Under the pieces are notes generated by a model. That model was given only the letters and a program-made list of their open reading frames with translations, did not search any database and was not told the DNA's origin. DNA of 64,000 nucleotides from a virus, in IMG/VR virus record IMGVR_UViG_3300036760_000689, positions 46,117 through 110,116 of that record, one strand, 5' to 3'. Numbering within the stretch: position 1 is the first letter of the stretch; every line of letters starts with the position of its first letter. This document shows positions 45,868 through 57,524 of the stretch, in pieces. Made by a program: the position numbers and the translations under genes.

Positions 45868-47757
45868 CTAAAGTTGATCGAAAGGGATATCTCCTTCTCT
45901 GTTTTGCATGAGATCATCCCTATCATAAATCATTGAATATTCAGTGTTTTGGAAATCGTGGTCTTTAGGGGGTTCCTCTTCTTTGAGTTCTCCAACCGAT
46001 CTCGGACGTAATTGGGTCGCGCAGTAATAGCAGATCATATGCGCCATCACAGCATCATCATGTTCCGCACCGCTATACCGTTCAGTTCCTTCCTCTTCCT
46101 CAACAAAATCGAACATCTCATCGATATCGTCTTCGCATCTGATGATAACTGTCCATTCGTCAAGGGCTTCCCGGAAACGTCCTATCAGTTCGTTTTTGTT
46201 TCTGAAAGTAGTCTGCCAACCGATCCAATTTGAATAAGCATTTCTGGCTTTGTCCTCGCGCATCCACCGATACCACCTCGGATACATGAGAACCTTGACC
46301 AAATCGGAAGCAACCGTAGTGATCGTATTGCATTCCGGGGCGATCTCAGCCGTGTTGTAATGGAAACCGAGAGCCGCCAGAATGCGTGCGAACTGGGTCG
46401 GCGGTGAATATCCATGCCATCGCGCTACCTGCCTAAGTGGTTGATTGATGTCCTCGGGAATCAGGTAGACTTGGGCGCAACATGGGTCGCCGTTTTCGAT
46501 GCCCATAGAGGGATCGCCGGATATGTAATATTTCAGTTTCTGCCGTGGAGATTCCCAAATCCTCAACTTGCCGCCCTCCTGTCGCGTCAATTTGGGAGTG
46601 AGATTATTTTCCTCTAGACGGATCTCGCCAGTCCACTTCGGCGGTCGGCAGAAGTAGTTGATCATCTCGTTCAGACGGCGTTTGCTGAAGGCACATCGGC
46701 CAGAGGCAACGAAGGCCTCTGCCGGCGTAAAGGGAAATTCCTGGGAAAATTTCTCCGCATCACCATCCGTCGCCTCAAATTCTGCCATCTTTTCCCGTCG
46801 CCATGCCATTTGTCCATCGGTGAGATTGATCTTGAGTTGTTCTTCTGCCTTCCGAATGATGGCATCTTCCTCGTTGGTCTTTGAAAAGTTGGCAGGCACC
46901 GCAATGGAATATCCCGGTTCGCGGAACCATTCAACGAAAACGAACTTCCAACCTAACGTTCCTTTTTCAGCCGCGCGACAGAGGCGAAACCATGTGCTAC
47001 GACGGCCACGGGCCGTTGACTCCATGATTCCAATGGAATGCTTGTAATTGACGAGCGATCCGAAAATTCCCTCAGTGATTGCGTTGGAGTTGCCATATCG
47101 AGCGACTTCTGCGAGATGTGCGCCATAGAGGGATTTGGAATAGGCGGCACCACCTGGCTGTTTGGCCGACTCAAAATAGATGACGGATTGCATGCCGAGA
47201 CTATAATCCCGGTCGATTTCTTTGGCTCGGTCGAATCCAAGAACAGCACTGCGGACATCATATCGTTTCTCGGGTTGCATCCACCAACAGAGGTTCTCAT
47301 AGGCAATCCGAGCCATAGCGAAATTCACATCCACACGAGTGTCCTCGTCCGACATCGAAAGAACATGCATGTAGGGATGGAGAAATGCCAACCAACACAT
47401 CAGGGCCACCGAGATTGTGGTCAATCCGAGCTGTCGCGCCTTGAGAACAATGAGACGGATGGGTTCATTGGCATTAAATTGGGCCATAAAGTTGGCGAGA
47501 AAGATCTCCTGACTATCCCAGAATGGATAGAAAGGTTGCGGCATAGCCTTTTTGGCGCGGATGAAGAAATAATTCTCGAGGAAATAACGAGGATTCTTCA
47601 GACAGCGGTTGACCTCTCGAGCCACAAACTGCAGTTCAAAGTCGGTAAGCGAGGCCCAAGTTCTGACCGCATCACCGCCGCATTCAACGTATTTTGCGTT
47701 GAGTTGGGCGATCGGTTCGATGATGTCCTTGTTCTTGCGCGGAAGCGATATTAGCAA
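45868..47757 (-). CDS. terL: Terminase large subunit
   Basis: LKARQLGLTT (Walker A), HLAEVA (Walker B), ESTARG, SGDPSMG and HDDAVMA nuclease motifs. Confidence 0.92.
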   Translation of the reverse strand: MLISLPRKNKDIIEPIAQLNAKYVECGGDAVRTWASLTDFELQFVAREVNRCLKNPRYFLENYFFIRAKKAMPQPFYPFWDSQEIFLANFMAQFNANEPIRLIVLKARQLGLTTISVALMCWLAFLHPYMHVLSMSDEDTRVDVNFAMARIAYENLCWWMQPEKRYDVRSAVLGFDRAKEIDRDYSLGMQSVIYFESAKQPGGAAYSKSLYGAHLAEVARYGNSNAITEGIFGSLVNYKHSIGIMESTARGRRSTWFRLCRAAEKGTLGWKFVFVEWFREPGYSIAVPANFSKTNEEDAIIRKAEEQLKINLTDGQMAWRREKMAEFEATDGDAEKFSQEFPFTPAEAFVASGRCAFSKRRLNEMINYFCRPPKWTGEIRLEENNLTPKLTRQEGGKLRIWESPRQKLKYYISGDPSMGIENGDPCCAQVYLIPEDINQPLRQVARWHGYSPPTQFARILAALGFHYNTAEIAPECNTITTVASDLVKVLMYPRWYRWMREDKARNAYSNWIGWQTTFRNKNELIGRFREALDEWTVIIRCEDDIDEMFDFVEEEEGTERYSGAEHDDAVMAHMICYYCATQLRPRSVGELKEEEPPKDHDFQNTEYSMIYDRDDLMQNREGDIPFDQL

Positions 47758-48673: not shown

Positions 48674-48982
48674 TCACTCAGGCTCAAGTTGCTTTTCCAG
48701 TTCCTTGATCTTGGCCTCGATCTCCTTGCGCCTCTCGGTCGCGGGTTTCAAGGACTCAAGATGGGCCTTGTGTTCCCGGAGTTCCTTCTCGATCCGATCC
48801 TGCTGGCGAGTATGAATTTCCCTACGCAGTTCCCGCAATCTGGGAGCCAGCCATTCAGGCTCCTCGGCGTTCAGTTTATCGCATTCGGACTGAACGGACC
48901 TTCCAAGGGCAGATAGGGCGACCATCTCCGCATAATCGGCTCGATCCTTGTCAAAGTTCTTCAGGATATCAATCAACGGCAT
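48674..48982 (-). CDS. Small coiled-coil protein overlapping the TROVE-like gene end
   Basis: GGAGGT Shine-Dalgarno inside the upstream gene; MPLIDILKNF...EPEWL...coiled coil. Confidence 0.7.
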   Translation of the reverse strand: MPLIDILKNFDKDRADYAEMVALSALGRSVQSECDKLNAEEPEWLAPRLRELRREIHTRQQDRIEKELREHKAHLESLKPATERRKEIEAKIKELEKQLEPE

Positions 48983-50450
48983 TGACCACCTCCTTTCCCA
49001 CAAACGTATCCTTCAGGGTAAGCAACGGCGTTGCGAAGATTTCATCGATCAGACTATATCGATTTGCGCGCATAGTCGTCACCAAGTTAGGCAGACTGTA
49101 GTAATCCACGCCCTTCGTTAGGTCAAACACCTGAATGTCAAGGTTCTCTTCCTTCATCTGTCCCGGCAGGAACCTGTCAGCATGTCCCACCATACTCGCA
49201 TGGCAATGGTAGAAATAGACTGGAATCTGTTTTCCTGTCGCGCTCACGAGTGCCTTATATTGATCTATAAACAAAGGCGGAGTGTTCTCTAGGCCATCAG
49301 ACACAATGGCAATCCCGTCGATTTCCACCTTGCGTTCGACCGCAGCCAACAACCCGCATCCGACCGAAGTCGCCCCGTTAGCATTGACACTCTTGGTTAT
49401 CCCTAGAAGTTCCTCATAGGTTTTCCCCGTCGCATCAATGAATCGCGGCGTGGCATCGAAGAACACCAGGGCCACGGTTCCCGTGACGTACTTTGCCAAG
49501 GTCGCAGCGACATTCCGCGAGATCTCGATCGCGTTCTCCATGGATCCAGACTTGTCTCCAAGCACAAGCCAGTTTCCTTCGATCCCTTTGGAGGCCATGA
49601 TCTGCTTCTCCTGAGTGGCCGCGAGTTTGGCTTTCAGGGCCACATCAGTCTGAGCCTCTGAAGCGCGAGTGGTCTTCAAGGTCGCCTTTTTAGAACTGGC
49701 CACCTTCTCCAACGCCTGTTCATAAGCGGCACGAAGCGCTGGAACGGTCTTCACACCCAGTTTTTCAAGCATCTTGGTATTGGTCACCAGTTCCGTGGGA
49801 GTCATCTGTCCAATCAGAGCCAGGACCAAATCCGACTCCTTGGCCTTCGCTCCGAGGGCACCCATTGCGATCAGGAAAGGGATCTTCCTATAAACAATCA
49901 CCCCTGCGGCCTCTAGCGTACTCATGTTCTTAAGGTTCGCAACCACCTCAAAAACGGACTCGGACGGATACTCTCTCTTGAACAGAACCCGATTCGCGCG
50001 CTCGGATGGCTTCGTATGCGTAAGAGCATACAATTCTTTCAACACTGTCCGATGCTGTAGGGCAATACGGTCCCAGTTACAACTTTCGATCTTTCGCAGA
50101 TATCGTTCTGCCAACCGTTTGATACTCTTCCCGTTTCCGGGCGTTGGGACTTCAAGGGCAAAACGATAGGCTTTGAGGAACTCCCGAGGATTAAGGAGAG
50201 CCAGATGCGCCAAGGCGTTTTCCGCAAATTCCGGCTGAGTAGGAACGGTAAGGGCCACCACCGGCAGCGCGGCCTTGGCATCCCGAATCTGGCCATGATC
50301 CTTATCCCAAGCAATGAGGTGCGCCAGAAACTCTGGTTCTTCCTTTGCGGCCTTCTGACCGACTGGTATGTATTCGACTAATTTACCGTGGGCCGATCGA
50401 GAAAGCTCGGACAAGATCTGGTTCTTGGTGATTCCGATCTCCTGCTTCAT
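48969..50450 (-). CDS. TROVE/Ro60 (Rsr)-like RNA-binding protein with C-terminal vWA domain
   Basis: Helical basic N-terminal 290 aa (EPEFLAHLIAW..G.IRD; QMTPTELVTN); MIDAS DKSGSM, GATS, SDGLEN; adjacent Y-RNA-like elements. Confidence 0.7.
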   Translation of the reverse strand: MKQEIGITKNQILSELSRSAHGKLVEYIPVGQKAAKEEPEFLAHLIAWDKDHGQIRDAKAALPVVALTVPTQPEFAENALAHLALLNPREFLKAYRFALEVPTPGNGKSIKRLAERYLRKIESCNWDRIALQHRTVLKELYALTHTKPSERANRVLFKREYPSESVFEVVANLKNMSTLEAAGVIVYRKIPFLIAMGALGAKAKESDLVLALIGQMTPTELVTNTKMLEKLGVKTVPALRAAYEQALEKVASSKKATLKTTRASEAQTDVALKAKLAATQEKQIMASKGIEGNWLVLGDKSGSMENAIEISRNVAATLAKYVTGTVALVFFDATPRFIDATGKTYEELLGITKSVNANGATSVGCGLLAAVERKVEIDGIAIVSDGLENTPPLFIDQYKALVSATGKQIPVYFYHCHASMVGHADRFLPGQMKEENLDIQVFDLTKGVDYYSLPNLVTTMRANRYSLIDEIFATPLLTLKDTFVGKEVVNAVD

Positions 50451-50725
50451 GACGGTTCCTTTTCCTCTTTGCTGCAGAATTTCAGGACGCCCTCTACAAA
50501 GATTTCATCAAATCCCAAAATGGCATGTACGTCCCTGAAATGGGTTAATTCAACGATCAGGTAGTCCAATAACTGAGAGAATCTCAAAGGAATTGACTCT
50601 CCTGTTTTTACTGTCATGTTGGCTATAATGGCCATGACGGCTCCTTTATCGTGCGATATGCTTTTACGCCCAAGAATTGACGACTGAATCTGGCCAGCCA
50701 GCACCCGCGCTGAGTTGTCAGCCAC
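50447..50725 (-). CDS. Hypothetical protein coupled to the TROVE-like gene
   Basis: ATGA overlap with the TROVE start; own start uncertain. Confidence 0.4.
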   Translation of the reverse strand: MADNSARVLAGQIQSSILGRKSISHDKGAVMAIIANMTVKTGESIPLRFSQLLDYLIVELTHFRDVHAILGFDEIFVEGVLKFCSKEEKEPS

Positions 50726-50728
50726 TCG

Positions 50729-50915
50729 TTACGCGACGCTCCGGCGTTCCACTCGGTTTGGCGATCATCAGGGCAATCATCCTTGGTTAGAGGAACCGAA
50801 ATCTTCTCCCTGAGTCAGCCGACCCTGCGAGGGTTTCCCCCTCCTGCGCTTGATCGACCTCTCCCGTAATTCACTTCTTAGAGGATGGCTGCTTTCAAGC
50901 CTACCTTTCGCACGC
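50729..50915 (-). ncRNA. Structured RNA starting with a 23S rRNA helix-43 (L11-binding) mimic
   Basis: AAGGTAGGCTTGAAAGCAGCCATCCTCTAAGAAG, followed by hand-paired stems GGtCGATCA/TGATCGCC, GAGGG/CCCTC, TCAGGG/CCCTGA and TTACG/CGTAA. Confidence 0.65.
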
Positions 50916-51380
50916 TTACTCGCGAGAAGTCAGTTCGGGAGATATAGGGCTTGCGGTCCTATGTCGCTTTCGCTTCCAAGTCAAGTGACATGTATCCCGT
51001 ACAAGTACCCGCGATATTTGCTGGCGGAGAGTCCATCGCTTCTTTTCTATGGACTTCGCCCTTTTACATGGATCGCATCGGCAGCCCCTTTTATATCTGC
51101 TCCTCGTCCCATGTTTCTCAACTTGGCCATGAACGATGCGATGACAGCTATAACACAGAGGGATGCATTTGGATAATTCTGGTTCCCTTCGTTCATCCCG
51201 CCAAATCCAGATATGATGACTAACCTTCTTGTCCGGATCTGCATGATGACAAACAAGTTTGTCACTGCTACCGCATCTCGTACATTTGCTGTCATACCTG
51301 GAGAACCACCCTTTCCTTCTTTCGGCGACAAGTATCCTTTGCCGTCTGAGTCTGCCTTCAGCATTTAATGGCATTGGCAT
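50916..51380 (-). CDS. HNH endonuclease
   Basis: CTRCG...CHHADPDKK...ELSKCIPLCYSCH...HGTRSRYKRGCRCDPC. True start is probably 51380, because the upstream codons are the tRNA-like RNA. Confidence 0.85.
   Translation of the reverse strand: MPMPLNAEGRLRRQRILVAERRKGWFSRYDSKCTRCGSSDKLVCHHADPDKKVSHHIWIWRDERREPELSKCIPLCYSCHRIVHGQVEKHGTRSRYKRGCRCDPCKRAKSIEKKRWTLRQQISRVLVRDTCHLTWKRKRHRTASPISPELTSRE
50920..51014 (-). ncRNA. Y-RNA-like element with a two-hairpin payload
   Basis: TCGCGGG-tac..CGGGA-TACAT...TCCCG..GACTT-CTCGCGA; same module as 51387-51525. Confidence 0.6.
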
Positions 51381-51386
51381 TTTTAC

Positions 51387-51525
51387 TGGCGTCAAGTCGA
51401 TGAAGGTTTTTGCTGTTAAAACAGATTTTAAATCTGTCGCGTTTGCCATTCCGCCAGTCGCCCGCATGGTGGGCGACCCACGATTCGAACGTGGAAAAAC
51501 ATGTACCCTTTATCCGTAGACGCCA
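51387..51525 (-). ncRNA. Circularly permuted tRNA-Leu(UAA) / YrlA-like Y RNA
   Basis: T arm CCACG-TTCGAAT-CGTGG, then GTCGCCC-ACCA-tgc-GGGCGAC, D arm TGGCGGAATGGCAAACGCG, anticodon arm ACAGA-TT-TAA-AA-TCTGT, all closed by TGGCGTC/GACGCCA. Confidence 0.85.
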
Positions 51526-51530
51526 TTCCC

Positions 51531-51986
51531 TTAGGCTTTCCGATTATTTTCATACCAGTCTCGGTAAACCTTACTCTTGCATTCTGGGTGTTCTCCGAAT
51601 GATTTCGTATCGTCCCTGTTTCTCCAGACGATCAGATTATTAGGATCGTCGTATTTCTTGCATCTTGGGCATTTTAGCCAGTTTGCATTCCCGCATTGCC
51701 GGAATGCTCTTAGCCGACGATGTAGTAACAGGTGGTATCTCTGACTTTCGCAGATCACCAAATCCTTTGATTCCTTCTTGTTTCCATTGCCGTGATGCAC
51801 TACCGCATTGTCCGGCAATGCTCTTCCGAAAGCTGCTACCGCCATCATTACATAAATCGGGACATAACCGCTCGACCTAGCTCGGGGATGACTGGGGTCG
51901 AGAATCGCAGGATACCCATTGCTCACATCTTTACGCCCACCCTTCCAGTTATTATTGTTTTCCCTAGAACAATCGCTCTTTTTCAT
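51531..51986 (-). CDS. HNH endonuclease (HNH_3-like, possibly degenerate)
   Basis: NNNWKGG...HPRA..GYV...VVHHGNGNK..DLVIC. Confidence 0.8.
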   Translation of the reverse strand: MKKSDCSRENNNNWKGGRKDVSNGYPAILDPSHPRARSSGYVPIYVMMAVAAFGRALPDNAVVHHGNGNKKESKDLVICESQRYHLLLHRRLRAFRQCGNANWLKCPRCKKYDDPNNLIVWRNRDDTKSFGEHPECKSKVYRDWYENNRKA

Positions 51987-52531
51987 GCCGGTTTCCTGTT
52001 TCTCAGGTACTCGCAGATCGCATGATAGTCATACCCCTTTCTGAGACACCAACTTTCGGGATGTTCTGATCCTTTATCCTTATTGTCTCTTTTGCAAGAG
52101 GTCAGATAATTCGTAGCGTCGTTCTTGCCCCCAAGCTCCAATGGCACCCAATGATCAATCGTGAGAAGTGCATCGCCCATTTTCGCGCCACAATATACAC
52201 ACTTAAATCCATCCTTTGACCAAATCCGTTGCTGCACCGATCCGGAAATCTCCCACCGTAGTTTCCGCTGGAAGATCTTCGCATTCCCAACCAGAATCTC
52301 CGGATCATCGCTCCGGTGAATGAAATCGCTCCACTCTTCGTCCGTCAGATCGATGAACGTCCAGTCGAGTCCTTTGTAGGCAACGGCGCTCGGCAACAGC
52401 AAAACCGCAGCGGCTCCGCCGCCACTCACCACAAGGCCGCTGATCTTCAGGAGTGATCCGATGTCGCCATACTGCACCGGCCTGTTCCGGAACTCCATCA
52501 GGTAGAAACGATCTCCGCTTGCACCACTCAT
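51983..52531 (-). CDS. HNH nuclease with an atypical N-terminal domain
   Basis: KDGFKCVYCG...LTIDHWVPLELGG...NYLTSCKRDNKDKG; start at 52531 or 52498. Confidence 0.8.
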   Translation of the reverse strand: MSGASGDRFYLMEFRNRPVQYGDIGSLLKISGLVVSGGGAAAVLLLPSAVAYKGLDWTFIDLTDEEWSDFIHRSDDPEILVGNAKIFQRKLRWEISGSVQQRIWSKDGFKCVYCGAKMGDALLTIDHWVPLELGGKNDATNYLTSCKRDNKDKGSEHPESWCLRKGYDYHAICEYLRNRKPA

Positions 52532-52922
52532 CCTCACTAACCCTCCATATGACGGTATGACCAACAATTCCAACGATGTTCTTAACATAATGGAGGGCAT
52601 TGCAAACCCGGCAAAGGACGTTGTATTGGAATCTGCATGCCTCATCCCGAATGATTTTTCTGTAAAGGGCCACGTTCGAATGCATTGCGCGAGCCTCTTT
52701 ATTTCCACCGCCGTTGATGTGATTGATTTCTAGGATCGCAATTACGTCACAATCGCATATGAAGCATCTAGGCCCTCCCAGGACTTTCATAGCCCCAACC
52801 CTGAGTCTTTGTCTTTGAGCCTTCCAATAAGTCCTATTGTAGAGAACGCGGTGGGTTTTCCTATATTCCCTCATGTAAAAACGCTGGTATTTTGTTCTTA
52901 TCTCCTTGTCCTTATTTGCCAT
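52305..52922 (-). CDS. HNH endonuclease (C-terminus runs over the next gene)
   Basis: CFIC...LEINHINGGG...YNVLCRVCN; same subfamily as 4773-5384. Confidence 0.8.
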   Translation of the reverse strand: MANKDKEIRTKYQRFYMREYRKTHRVLYNRTYWKAQRQRLRVGAMKVLGGPRCFICDCDVIAILEINHINGGGNKEARAMHSNVALYRKIIRDEACRFQYNVLCRVCNALHYVKNIVGIVGHTVIWRVSEDEWCKRRSFLPDGVPEQAGAVWRHRITPEDQRPCGEWRRSRCGFAVAERRCLQRTRLDVHRSDGRRVERFHSPER

Positions 52923-57143: not shown

Positions 57144-57524
57144 TCAGATTGCAACACGCCCAATCTTCCTCAGGAGCATCTTGTTTGACTGGGAAATCAA
57201 TGCCGAAGCAGCCATCTTCTTTGCACCCCGCTTCGAGATGGGACGCGGCCGACTGTAACCCGGAGATCTGCCCCGCCATAAACGCCACGCACGCACGGCT
57301 GCGGTTAGAATTCCAGCGTTGGACGAGACGTCAGTCGGCATCCTCTTGCTGACTCCTGGCCATAGGCCCTTGGCGTCCAGGATCACAAAGATTGTGAAAT
57401 TGCCGAGGACGCCATAATGGATGTCGAATGTCTTGTCCTTCAAATCCACATCTCTATGCATGCGTTCCCGCTCGGGAAGCAGGGCAAGAAAGTCATCCCT
57501 GTTCATTTTTGACAACTGAGACAT
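57144..57524 (-). CDS. Hypothetical protein
   Basis: AAGGAG Shine-Dalgarno before MSQLSK; GVSKRMPTD. Confidence 0.5.
   Translation of the reverse strand: MSQLSKMNRDDFLALLPERERMHRDVDLKDKTFDIHYGVLGNFTIFVILDAKGLWPGVSKRMPTDVSSNAGILTAAVRAWRLWRGRSPGYSRPRPISKRGAKKMAASALISQSNKMLLRKIGRVAI

Follow-up and report, generated by a model that had tools for sequence, protein, structure and literature searches.

A phage-encoded copy of the GTPase-associated centre of 23S rRNA, a candidate decoy away from the ribosome

Results

The locus

The window analysed here is a stretch of 64,000 nt, positions 46,117 to 110,116 of IMGVR_UViG_3300036760_000689, from an uncultured phage with a genome of 110 kb, and all coordinates below are in window numbering. 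A gene for an HNH endonuclease of 183 aa (50916-51467, minus strand; PHROG 4234, E 2e-25) is the last of three in tandem, the other two (51531-51986 and 51983-52708) also matching HNH families. It ends 2 nt before a 265-nt element (50650-50914, minus strand) which is the subject of this work. Past the element come an SD sequence, AAGGAG (50646-50641), and an ATG (50635), the latter 14 nt beyond the closing stem of the element, which open a 62-codon ORF, ORF62 (50447-50646 including the SD, minus strand). The stop codon of ORF62 overlaps the start codon of the next gene (48969-50450, minus strand), which encodes a Ro60/TROVE-like protein of 493 aa. No homologue of ORF62 was found in relatives or at other loci, and it may not be a gene.

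The 493-aa protein was assigned by its fold. The AlphaFold model (pLDDT 68.8) shows a helical ring and a vWA domain, and its top 13 matches in the PDB are all Ro60, the best being Thermus phage phiLo Ro60 (9l5y, E 1e-7) followed by the human and Xenopus proteins and D. radiodurans Rsr. The sequence matches PHROG 850, 'RNA-binding protein', with weak vWA matches, and is not reached by a Pfam TROVE search. No promoter or terminator match was found next to the element, which looks as if it lies inside a polycistronic mRNA. Genes for tRNA are absent from the entire 110-kb genome, the window included. In relatives L004-L009 the homologue of the 241-aa HNH protein stands directly before the Ro60-like gene, with neither intervening genes nor the element. 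At gathering score Rfam matched nothing in the 64 kb, and relaxing the cutoff to E 10 for 50300-51300 brought no match either. An RNA of the HEARO/IscB type, or another known HNH-associated RNA, was rejected given the lack of any Rfam match and the finding that adjacency to HNH genes is not a trait of the family described below.

Resemblance to 23S rRNA

A sequence-only reading of this DNA had singled out the string AAGGTAGGCTTGAAAGCAGCCATCCTCTAAGAAG as a copy of part of the L11-binding GTPase-associated centre (GAC) of bacterial 23S rRNA. The string is real and occurs once, on the minus strand at 50875-50908, beginning 7 nt past the stop codon of the HNH gene. The 23S sequence quoted in that reading was also essentially right, as Salmonella LT2 23S rRNA has GATGTTGGCTTAGAAGCAGCCATCATTTAAAGAA at the equivalent of E. 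coli 1056-1089. There it is followed directly by GCGTAATAGCTCAC, i.e. helix 43 (H43) and helix 44 (H44) are contiguous.

The window copy is identical to the Salmonella 34-mer at 24 of 34 positions. The proposed comparison with shuffled controls gave a divided answer. When 34-mers were counted the resemblance stood out, only 1 of 200 shuffled windows reaching 24 matches. However, a BLASTN search of the window against the whole 23S rRNA remained at the level of the shuffles (best real match 31.9 bits, shuffles 29.0 ± 2.2). Identity to one 23S rRNA is by itself borderline, because 46 of the 2908 34-mers of the same 23S rRNA reach 24/34 somewhere in the window and the site is not among the top BLASTN matches.

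A covariance model, R1, was built from 38 other phage copies, excluding the element under study and a near relative. Searched against the 64-kb window, R1 gave a single match at 50649-50915 on the minus strand with 68.4 bits and E 3.3e-17, spanning model positions 1-179 of 179, and the R1 search found one copy in the whole 110-kb genome. Built from phage copies, R1 also recognises the true Salmonella GAC (55.7 bits). The window copy is the most divergent of the copies scored with R1, having 68 bits as against 92-98 for those of L002 (from a sister lineage, L002/G005), GAP32 and Aeromonas phage 4_4572. A second partial match at 57205-57220 amounts to a 16-nt core within coding sequence, without H44 or the stem.

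The BLASTN result, no better than shuffled controls, is what one would expect of a chance resemblance or of a decaying scrap of captured host rDNA, but BLASTN against 23S rRNA alone is unable to decide this. The model score and the covariation rule out a chance match. The E value of 3.3e-17 and the presence of compensatory changes argue equally against a scrap, as does a homologous element in another phage lineage whose identity is 70% over 246 nt, compared with only 62% for the neighbouring protein. Moreover, the inserted arm, the UUUG linker and the U1090-A1101 pair are family features absent from real 23S rRNA. Chance or rDNA debris is thus counted as already refuted by the tests run, and we regard it as barely conceivable. 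A plain rRNA gene or fragment is likewise ruled out by the absence of any LSU rRNA match in the window, by an insert of 203 nt and by the family-specific features; with protein genes on both sides, the sequence-only reading was justified in not calling it an rRNA gene.

Architecture of the element

From 5' to 3' the element comprises one strand of a 7-bp closing stem, a copy of H43, the 203-nt arm, a copy of H44 and the second closing strand. The 5' strand of the closing stem, CGUGCGA (50908-50914, minus strand), corresponds to E. coli 1049-1055 at the top of helix 42. It forms 7 bp with 50650-50656, and in four of these pairs both bases differ from those of the L002 copy.

The H43 copy (50882-50906, minus strand; 1057-1081) keeps the pairs 1057-1081 (A-U) and 1058-1080 (G-C), both of which covary in the family, as well as 1059-1079 (G-C) and 1062-1064/1074-1076. 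The G-C at 1058-1080 is compensatory, because this pair is U-A in Salmonella and in L002. The loop, UUGAAAGCA, fits the 9-nt family pattern UURRAAGCA and departs from the consensus UUAGAAGCA at 1067 and 1068, where the GA variant is found in 5 of 88 copies. The junction strand CUAAGAAGU (50873-50881, minus strand; 1082-1090) corresponds to the family junction nUAAnGAGU, with A1084, A1085 and A1088 conserved. Within it C1082-G1086 follows a covarying family pair (U-A in 42 copies, C-G in 33, A-U in 5), while A1087 pairs with U1102, a compensated variant seen in 2 of the 88 copies where 81 have G-C.

The observation that H44 does not directly follow the match was literally correct, but a copy of it, GCGTAAAAGC (50669-50660), is present after the insert. 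Whereas H44 begins about 9 nt after H43 in LSU rRNA, the 203-nt insert here falls between positions 1090 and 1091. The H44 hairpin, GCGUAAAAGC (50660-50669, minus strand; 1091-1100), thus lies 203 nt past position 1090 and is the best match in the window to a profile of the 3' half made from 61 other members. It keeps G1091-C1100 and C1092-G1099 and has U1097 replaced by A, as in 9 of the 88 copies. The family form of H44, GCGUAAnAGC with an ACAC-type strand behind it, is found here as GCGUAAAAGC followed by AUAU, in which U1102 compensates A1087. The last segment (50650-50659, minus strand) consists of AUA (1101-1103) and the 3' strand of the closing stem, UCGCACG (1104-1110), and supplies U1090-A1101, A1087-U1102 and the 7-bp stem.

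All the covarying pairs of the family are kept in the window copy, including the rare compensatory A1087-U1102 and G1058-C1080, and its loop tips carry the changes A1067G, G1068A and U1097A. The folding energy of the single sequence is unexceptional (z -0.7 to -1.0), so thermodynamics alone would have missed the element. A cos or pac site between HNH and packaging genes was also rejected, as compensatory changes reflect selection on pairing in RNA and not on DNA. With its closing stem, H43, H44 and compensatory changes, the imitation of the L11-binding centre is a real structural one. It is moreover complete, going beyond the earlier claim, since its own closing stem and H44 copy rebuild the whole three-way junction. 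That the window copy is a functional GAC-mimic RNA we consider highly probable.

The inserted arm

The arm and the linker behind it occupy 50670-50872 (minus strand). The arm is closed by a helix of 8 bp between GAAUUACG (50872-50865) and CGUCAAUUC (50682-50674) that is conserved with L002. Three hairpins are predicted inside it, at about 50861-50817, 50816-50763 and 50762-50697, the second containing a conserved loop hairpin, UCCUCUAACCAAGGA, at 50794-50780. The 4-nt linker following the arm, UUGG (50673-50670), is unique among 88 copies, of which 67 have UUUG and 12 have UUUA. RNAalifold predicted 63 pairs from the window and L002 copies together, and in 16 of these both bases differ between the two. 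Pairing at the first 4 bp of the arm reaches 88% of cells across the family, compared with 47% once the partners are shuffled. When viral and metagenome contigs were scanned, the arm type of the window turned up in its own genome and in one other lineage only. Similarity between the arm and the rest of 23S rRNA is at chance level. A sarcin-ricin-like hairpin was searched for in the window's arm and is absent; one is present in the arm of five long-arm members of the family.

An insert of this kind could in principle be a self-splicing, group I-like intron whose spliced product is a plain GAC copy. It follows a U, ends in G and always occupies the same site, its first bases, AAUUnCGGGA, bring to mind what we take to be the P3/P4 strand of group I introns, and both lineages carry an endonuclease gene just upstream. 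However, only about one member in ten has a homing endonuclease upstream, and 12 of 88 inserts, those with the UUUA linker, end in A. Family inserts can be as short as 27-61 nt and are then plain hairpins. The two ends of the insert form covarying pairs with one another, and an internal guide sequence is missing. Rfam group I or II models gave no match at E 10 here or at gathering score on 11 other loci. The lack of an Rfam match, the short inserts and the pairing of the ends rule out identification as a group I or II intron, and splicing in any such form appears very improbable.

The phage RNA family

The search of phage genomes suggested by the sequence-only reading was productive. At least 120 viral contigs carry such elements, and cultured carriers include Cronobacter phage GAP32, Pseudomonas phage pf16 and Aeromonas phage 4_4572. 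The family is unannotated and absent from Rfam 15, and no description of it was found in the literature searched. It rebuilds the 23S GAC (top of helix 42, H43 and H44; E. coli 1051-1108) as a free-standing, self-closed three-way junction, to which all members add a variable arm between positions 1090 and 1091.

Family pairing was found in 97.3% of cells as against 71.7% in shuffles and 33-52% in slid controls. The covariation score was 0.627 compared with 0.147 in shuffles, and 0 of 500 shuffles reached it. The closing stem covaries with 5-6 pair types per position. This covariation is selection acting at the RNA level. U1060, A1088, C1072, G1071, A1084/1085, G1093, A1095 and A1098, which build the tertiary core in GAC crystal structures, show little or no variation among 88 copies, and the window copy has them all. 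The loop-tip positions 1067, 1068, 1096 and 1097 are variable across the same copies, and no covariation was seen between the two loops (1067/1068 against 1096/1097). The natural variation of the family thereby shows which parts of the GAC the fold needs and which are free to change.

In bacterial 23S rRNA the GAC, or uL11-binding domain, is contained in E. coli 1051-1108, a 58-nt fragment that binds uL11 and thiostrepton. The phage element shares with it the three-way junction, the helix lengths, the loop sizes and most loop and junction nucleotides. It differs in being free-standing with its own closing stem instead of lying within a 2.9-kb rRNA, and in having the arm and 4-nt linker between 1090 and 1091 as well as U1090-A1101. 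The tips 1067, 1068, 1096 and 1097, which to our knowledge are fixed in bacterial 23S rRNA, vary in the phage family, the window copy having G1067, A1068 and A1097.

Genes for tRNA surround the element on the same strand in about 44 of 60 other loci, the pf16 copy for instance lying between tRNA-Asn and tRNA-Pro, and several family neighbours are tRNA-repair genes such as polynucleotide kinases. Clusters of tRNA genes are a place for stable translation-related RNAs. This setting, frequent though not universal, is taken here as context and not as a trait that defines the family. Phage T4 makes two stable RNAs from its tRNA cluster, species 1 and 2 (rnaC/rnaD), and most family members resemble these in being small phage RNAs amid tRNAs, probably co-processed with them. 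The 48 phage records that an H43 probe matched did not include T4, and the window copy, unlike the T4 RNAs, sits in a genome without any tRNA gene. It thus widens the picture of the family, whose RNA can exist in a phage lacking tRNA genes, tolerates changes at A1067 and G1068, and can apparently share a transcription unit with a Ro60-like RNA chaperone.

Relation to the downstream genes

The position of the window copy directly before a ribosome-binding site recalls the operon leaders of ribosomal proteins, in which RNA off the ribosome imitates a ribosomal-protein site; such rRNA-mimicking leaders include that of rplJ/L10 and the one in the L11 operon to which L1 binds. The element could similarly be a cis-acting leader of the ORF62/Ro60-like operon, in which the folded domain would bind uL11 or another factor and control translation or stability downstream. 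The SD begins only 4 nt past the closing stem, translation of the Ro60-like gene is coupled to that of ORF62, and an SD and ORF also follow the L002 copy, at 22 nt. An SD and ORF directly past the element were found in only 12 of 81 members and so are not a family rule. The downstream ORFs of the window and L002 are unrelated, most members lie between tRNA genes, and ORF62, lacking a homologue wherever looked for, may not even be coding. Known leaders are cellular and cis-acting, stand before ribosomal-protein genes and bear a loose likeness to rRNA; the phage element is viral, nearly identical to the rRNA domain and usually located amid tRNA genes. It matches no leader family in Rfam, and the genes directly downstream are ORF62 and the Ro60-like gene. 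A leader function therefore seems rather improbable.

The Ro60-like gene suggests another role, that of a Y-RNA-like adaptor partnering this protein in the lineage of the window. Its closing stem would serve as the Ro60 site, and its GAC module would link the particle to uL11, ribosomes or rRNA-processing substrates. Bacterial Y RNAs are built of modules, combining a stem that binds Ro with a mimic module, which in YrlA imitates a tRNA. The phage element resembles Y RNAs, including bacterial and phage YrlA, in its modular build, in ends that form a stem, in a body that imitates an RNA of translation and in the nearby Ro60-like gene. This gene, recognised by fold, shares the strand of the element, starts 200 nt beyond it and is probably on the same transcript. 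In the sister lineage both a Ro60-like gene and the homologous RNA have been kept, no more than 3.3 kb apart. In L002, however, nine tRNA genes and an endonuclease gene stand between the two. Four relatives (G001-G004), one of them a complete genome, have the Ro60-like gene without a GAC mimic, while five phages with the mimic lack this Ro60-like family. A search of 88 loci outside the clade showed no Ro60-like gene within 4 kb, and beyond the clade the two families do not co-occur. The element, unlike Y RNAs, imitates an rRNA domain and not a tRNA, and gave no Y_RNA match in Rfam even at E 10. A partnership with Ro60 is on this evidence unlikely. In its fuller form, a viral Ro60 particle would have taken on the GAC mimic as its RNA subunit, with a copy of the uL11-binding centre replacing the tRNA-like module. 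Phage Ro60, together with any nuclease it brought, would then be docked onto uL11, stalk assembly intermediates or host rRNA; we think this a shade less likely still.

Proposed function

The GAC is the site of action for uL11, the stalk, EF-G, EF-Tu, IF2, RelA and the thiostrepton class of antibiotics. The phage RNA would most likely present this folded rRNA domain, off the ribosome, to whatever normally recognises it. No conserved protein partner was found among 1024 neighbouring ORFs of 88 loci or among 55 upstream ORFs, and no phage uL11 gene is present in five genomes checked, that of the window's phage included, which points to a partner that is probably a host component. The leading candidate would be the host's own uL11, because it is the known binder of the isolated domain and no phage uL11 gene was found here. 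Binding could withhold uL11 or alter what uL11-dependent processes see, for example the activation of RelA, which needs uL11. We infer expression as a stable RNA, the ligand and the consequence of binding, and tentatively propose that the element is a decoy for a host GAC binder with uL11 as ligand, a proposal to which we give slightly less than an even chance.

The distribution of conserved positions bears on the choice of ligand. On the ribosome the loop tips meet factors and thiostrepton. Given that tip positions 1067, 1068, 1096 and 1097 vary while the core is all but fixed, a ligand that reads the fold, such as uL11, fits better than a GTPase, and A1067G, G1068A and U1097A are a slight argument against a RelA- or GTPase-type ligand for the window copy. 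Against a uL11 decoy, the window copy is the most divergent scored and has G1067/A1068, A1097 and the unique UUGG linker. Its genome has no tRNA genes, so that processing by RNase P/Z at flanking tRNAs is lacking, and it is located within an apparent polycistronic mRNA with no adjoining promoter or terminator match. As uL11 is abundant, very high levels of the RNA would be needed for it to act as a sponge.

The sarcin-ricin-loop copy in some members, which uL11 does not bind, points to a GTPase-like or toxin ligand for at least part of the family. The element might be a decoy substrate that soaks up a host defence or toxin enzyme, such as an ADP-ribosyltransferase, nuclease or methyltransferase, which in its absence would disable ribosomes at H43/H44 in the course of infection, much as phage tRNAs replace or shield tRNAs attacked by host defences. 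We know of no defence system directed at the GAC in phage-infected cells. The location of the family in tRNA clusters with tRNA-repair genes among its neighbours, the near invariance of G1093, U1094, A1095 and A1098 in the H44 loop and the addition by long-arm members of a hairpin resembling another classic toxin target would all suit such a role. Enzymes that hit exactly the GAC do exist, Tre23 ADP-ribosylating H44 of 23S rRNA around 1095-1098 and so blocking EF-G (PMC8661411). However, 1096 and 1097 within the Tre23 target window vary freely, 1097 being changed in the window copy, and the RNA would have to compete with tens of thousands of ribosomes. A toxin decoy is thus unlikely, if worth bearing in mind.

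If these RNAs act as their structure suggests, phages make a free copy of a functional centre of the ribosome. They would then form a class of viral non-coding RNA that is new, and would give phages a new way of taking over the host or countering its defences through translation or the stringent response. The proposed function is directly testable in the cultured carriers GAP32, pf16 and Aeromonas phage 4_4572.

An RNA copy of the GTPase-associated centre

The sequence-only reading had likened a 34-mer to the 23S GTPase-associated centre (GAC), and the rRNA sequence it quoted was right in substance, Salmonella LT2 23S being GATGTTGGCTTAGAAGCAGCCATCATTTAAAGAA followed by GCGTAATAGCTCAC. The 34-mer occurs once in the window, at 50875-50908 (minus strand), and shares 24 of 34 positions with Salmonella, a modest raw similarity. 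A value of 24/34 was reached in one of 200 window shuffles, but a BLASTN comparison of the window with the whole 23S gave scores near shuffle level (31.9 bits against 29.0 ± 2.2 for shuffled sequence) with the site outside the best matches. In addition, 46 of 2908 34-mers from the same Salmonella 23S also reached 24/34 somewhere in the window, and an Rfam search returned no match. On raw sequence alone the finding nearly failed the shuffled-control test; its structure and its homologues are what sustain it.

A related phage lineage (contigs L002 and L003) carries GATGTTGGCTTAGAAGCAGCCATCATCTAAGGAG at a different genome position, and its neighbouring 493-aa protein is 62% identical to that of the window. 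Similarity between the lineages extends over about 260 nt (70% over 246 nt). Both the window and L002 copies have a closing stem (in the window 7 bp, CGUGCGA with UCGCACG), followed 5' to 3' by a copy of H43, a junction strand, an arm with its own closing helix (201 nt in L002), a 4-nt linker, a copy of H44 and the closing strand. It was correct that H44 does not directly follow the 34-mer, since a 203-nt arm intervenes, but an H44 copy, GCGUAAAAGC, is present beyond the arm at 50669-50660 (minus strand). With the arm taken out, the joined flanks resemble the Bacillus-type 23S sequence ...AAGAGUGCGUAAUAGC... H44 is therefore present, and the element copies the whole uL11-binding domain (E. coli 1051-1108, numbering anchored on Salmonella 23S) and closes on itself.

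Covariation in a phage RNA family

The 18-nt H43 core, GGCTTRRAAGCAGCCAYC, matched at least 120 viral contigs. Among the matches listed, 88 distinct elements of the same plan were extracted, with arms of 27-400 nt and no plain 23S gene among them; the sample derives from matches listed to one H43 core, which hides variation inside the core. Across the 88 copies, pair 1058-1080 (E. coli 23S numbering) is U-A in 40, G-C in 25, A-U in 16 and C-G in 5, pair 1057-1081 is A-U in 70 and C-G in 15, and pair 1082-1086 is U-A in 42, C-G in 33 and A-U in 5. The outer closing stem is 82% paired across the family versus 40% with shuffled partners, and the first 4 bp of the arm 88% versus 47%. In an alignment of 38 sequences, 97.3% of cells were paired versus 71.7% in shuffles and 33-52% in slid controls, and the covariation score of 0.627 (0.147 shuffled) was reached by none of 500 shuffles. 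Covariation in the family is strong. Members were selected for an H43 core and for closing stems no shorter than 3 bp (6 bp in the model set), so the H43-core and closing-stem columns are biased; the others are not. The element is a selected, RNA-level copy of the uL11-binding domain. A chance match to 23S was rejected, as was an intron.

A home-made covariance model, for which E-values are rough, was built from the 38 sequences with the window and L002 left out. Its only match in the 64 kb was at 50649-50915 (minus strand; 68.4 bits, E 3.3e-17). L002 scored 98 bits (E 1.1e-25), Aeromonas phage 4_4572 95.9 bits (E 4.1e-25), GAP32 92.4 bits (E 3.8e-24) and the true Salmonella 23S GAC 55.7 bits (E 3.6e-14). 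A 16-nt H43-core match, GAAGCAGCCATCTTC, lies within coding sequence at 57205-57220 (plus strand); as a second copy it was rejected, having neither H44 nor closing stem and being missed by the model, and it is probably due to chance. Rfam 15 holds no GAC-mimic RNA family, and a full-text literature search gave no description of one.

The window copy is the most divergent among the copies scored. It has G1067/A1068 (a variant in 5 of 88), A1097 (9 of 88), a compensated A1087-U1102 pair (2 of 88) and a UUGG linker unique among the 88. Since it keeps every pair and every nucleotide known to build the GAC tertiary core, it looks functional rather than decaying.

Carriers and genomic setting

Cultured phages matched by the H43 probe were GAP32, Serratia BF, Erwinia pEa_SNUABM_12 and relatives, CBB, XacN1, XbC2, Aeromonas 4_4572, Pseudomonas pf16, Astolliot and Paenibacillus Pd_22F; the full element was confirmed by the model in GAP32 and 4_4572 only, and the element plan was extracted from pf16. 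The site is without annotation in nearly all of these records, and two have a hypothetical protein annotated across it. The family is usually located at sites of stable-RNA production. In pf16 tRNA-Asn and tRNA-Pro flank the element, which takes up the whole interval between them, and tRNA genes lie near it in about 44 of 60 metagenomic loci, on the same strand wherever strands were compared. Three tRNA clusters with the RNA (L040, L058 and L070) also contain a phage-encoded tmRNA.

The window phage has a 110-kb genome (110116 bases) rated complete in IMG/VR, with no tRNA gene in the whole of it; the closest sampled relative (107 kb), from the sister lineage, has at least ten near the same RNA. 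The large terminase gene is at 45868-47757. All genes neighbouring the element are on the minus strand. Three unlike tandem HNH endonuclease genes (241, 151 and 183 aa) occupy 50916-52708, and the 5' edge of the element is 2 nt past the stop codon of the 183-aa gene. The last 37 codons of that ORF, past its PHROG match, contain an 11-bp hairpin, GACAUAGGACC..GCCCUAUAUC, and a motif, GGGAUACAUG, at 50941-50965 and 50989-50998 (minus strand).

On the 3' side a Shine-Dalgarno sequence lies 4 nt on and the ATG of a 62-codon ORF 14 nt on. A less likely role for the RNA is that of a cis leader to the operon that follows; across the family a Shine-Dalgarno sequence directly follows the element in 12 of 81 members. 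The stop of the small ORF overlaps the start of the gene for the 493-aa protein (48969-50450, minus strand), which by predicted fold is Ro60/TROVE-like, with a helical ring and a vWA domain. Its top 13 PDB matches were all Ro60, Thermus phage Ro60 first, from a model of only moderate quality (pLDDT 68.8, TM about 0.34), and Pfam TROVE did not detect it. A role as RNA partner of Ro60 in the window lineage is another, less likely explanation. Eight other viral contigs encode homologues of the protein (52-62% identity), and in four relatives the Ro60-like gene directly follows a homologue of the 241-aa HNH gene, with no GAC mimic. Compared with these four, the window phage has an extra block of two HNH genes, the RNA and the small ORF, the 241-aa HNH being the only one of the three with homologues at this position in relatives. 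The stretch separating it from the Ro60-like gene appears to be an insertion hot spot for mobile genes. The homologous RNA of L002 belongs to a tRNA cluster 3.3 kb further along and immediately follows an unrelated His-Me-finger endonuclease gene. Given this different position and the four relatives without the RNA, the element has moved, probably with or beside homing endonucleases.

Possible ligand

We infer that the RNA works off the ribosome, where it would present the uL11-binding fold to a ligand. Host uL11 is the favoured candidate. It is the established protein partner of the isolated domain, and in the 88 copies the nucleotides that build the fold stay constant, whereas the loop tips that contact factors vary. 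Five carrier genomes have no uL11 gene, and the 88 loci no conserved phage protein partner: no protein family recurs beside the element (the biggest cluster covers 5 of 88), and among 55 upstream ORFs no PHROG appears more than three times, homing endonucleases making up about a tenth and polynucleotide kinases three. Less probably, the RNA diverts a toxin aimed at the GAC; Tre23 shows that enzymes of this kind exist. If host uL11 is the ligand, holding it back could leave ribosomes unable to activate RelA, which is the relC phenotype.

The arm

RNAalifold of the window and L002 copies, two sequences only, gave an 8-bp closing helix and three hairpins, with 16 of 63 pairs changed on both sides; a conserved hairpin, UCCUCUAACCAAGGA, is at 50794-50780 (minus strand). 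The window arm showed no significant similarity to the rest of 23S and no resemblance to other arms in the family sample, and its type was not found in further contigs. Other arm classes have motifs of their own. Five long arms (L046, L049, L071, L079 and L120; 313-363 nt) carry a sarcin-ricin-like hairpin, for example of the CAGUACGAGAGGAAC or AGUACGAGAGGAAC type, which is absent from the window copy; these members imitate both rRNA halves of the factor-binding site. Many arms of about 95-135 nt (L026, L036, L112, L132, L137 and others) share the motifs GUGCGAAAUGC, GGUAAGG and CACCCCGUAA. Of these, the first resembles 23S domain II at about E. coli 1195-1205 and may be a second imitated piece of rRNA. 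At L035:3724-3775 (plus strand) an H43 core is followed only 11 nt later by an H44-like GCGTAACAGC between non-rRNA flanks; this site failed the closing-stem filter and may be a minimal member without an arm.
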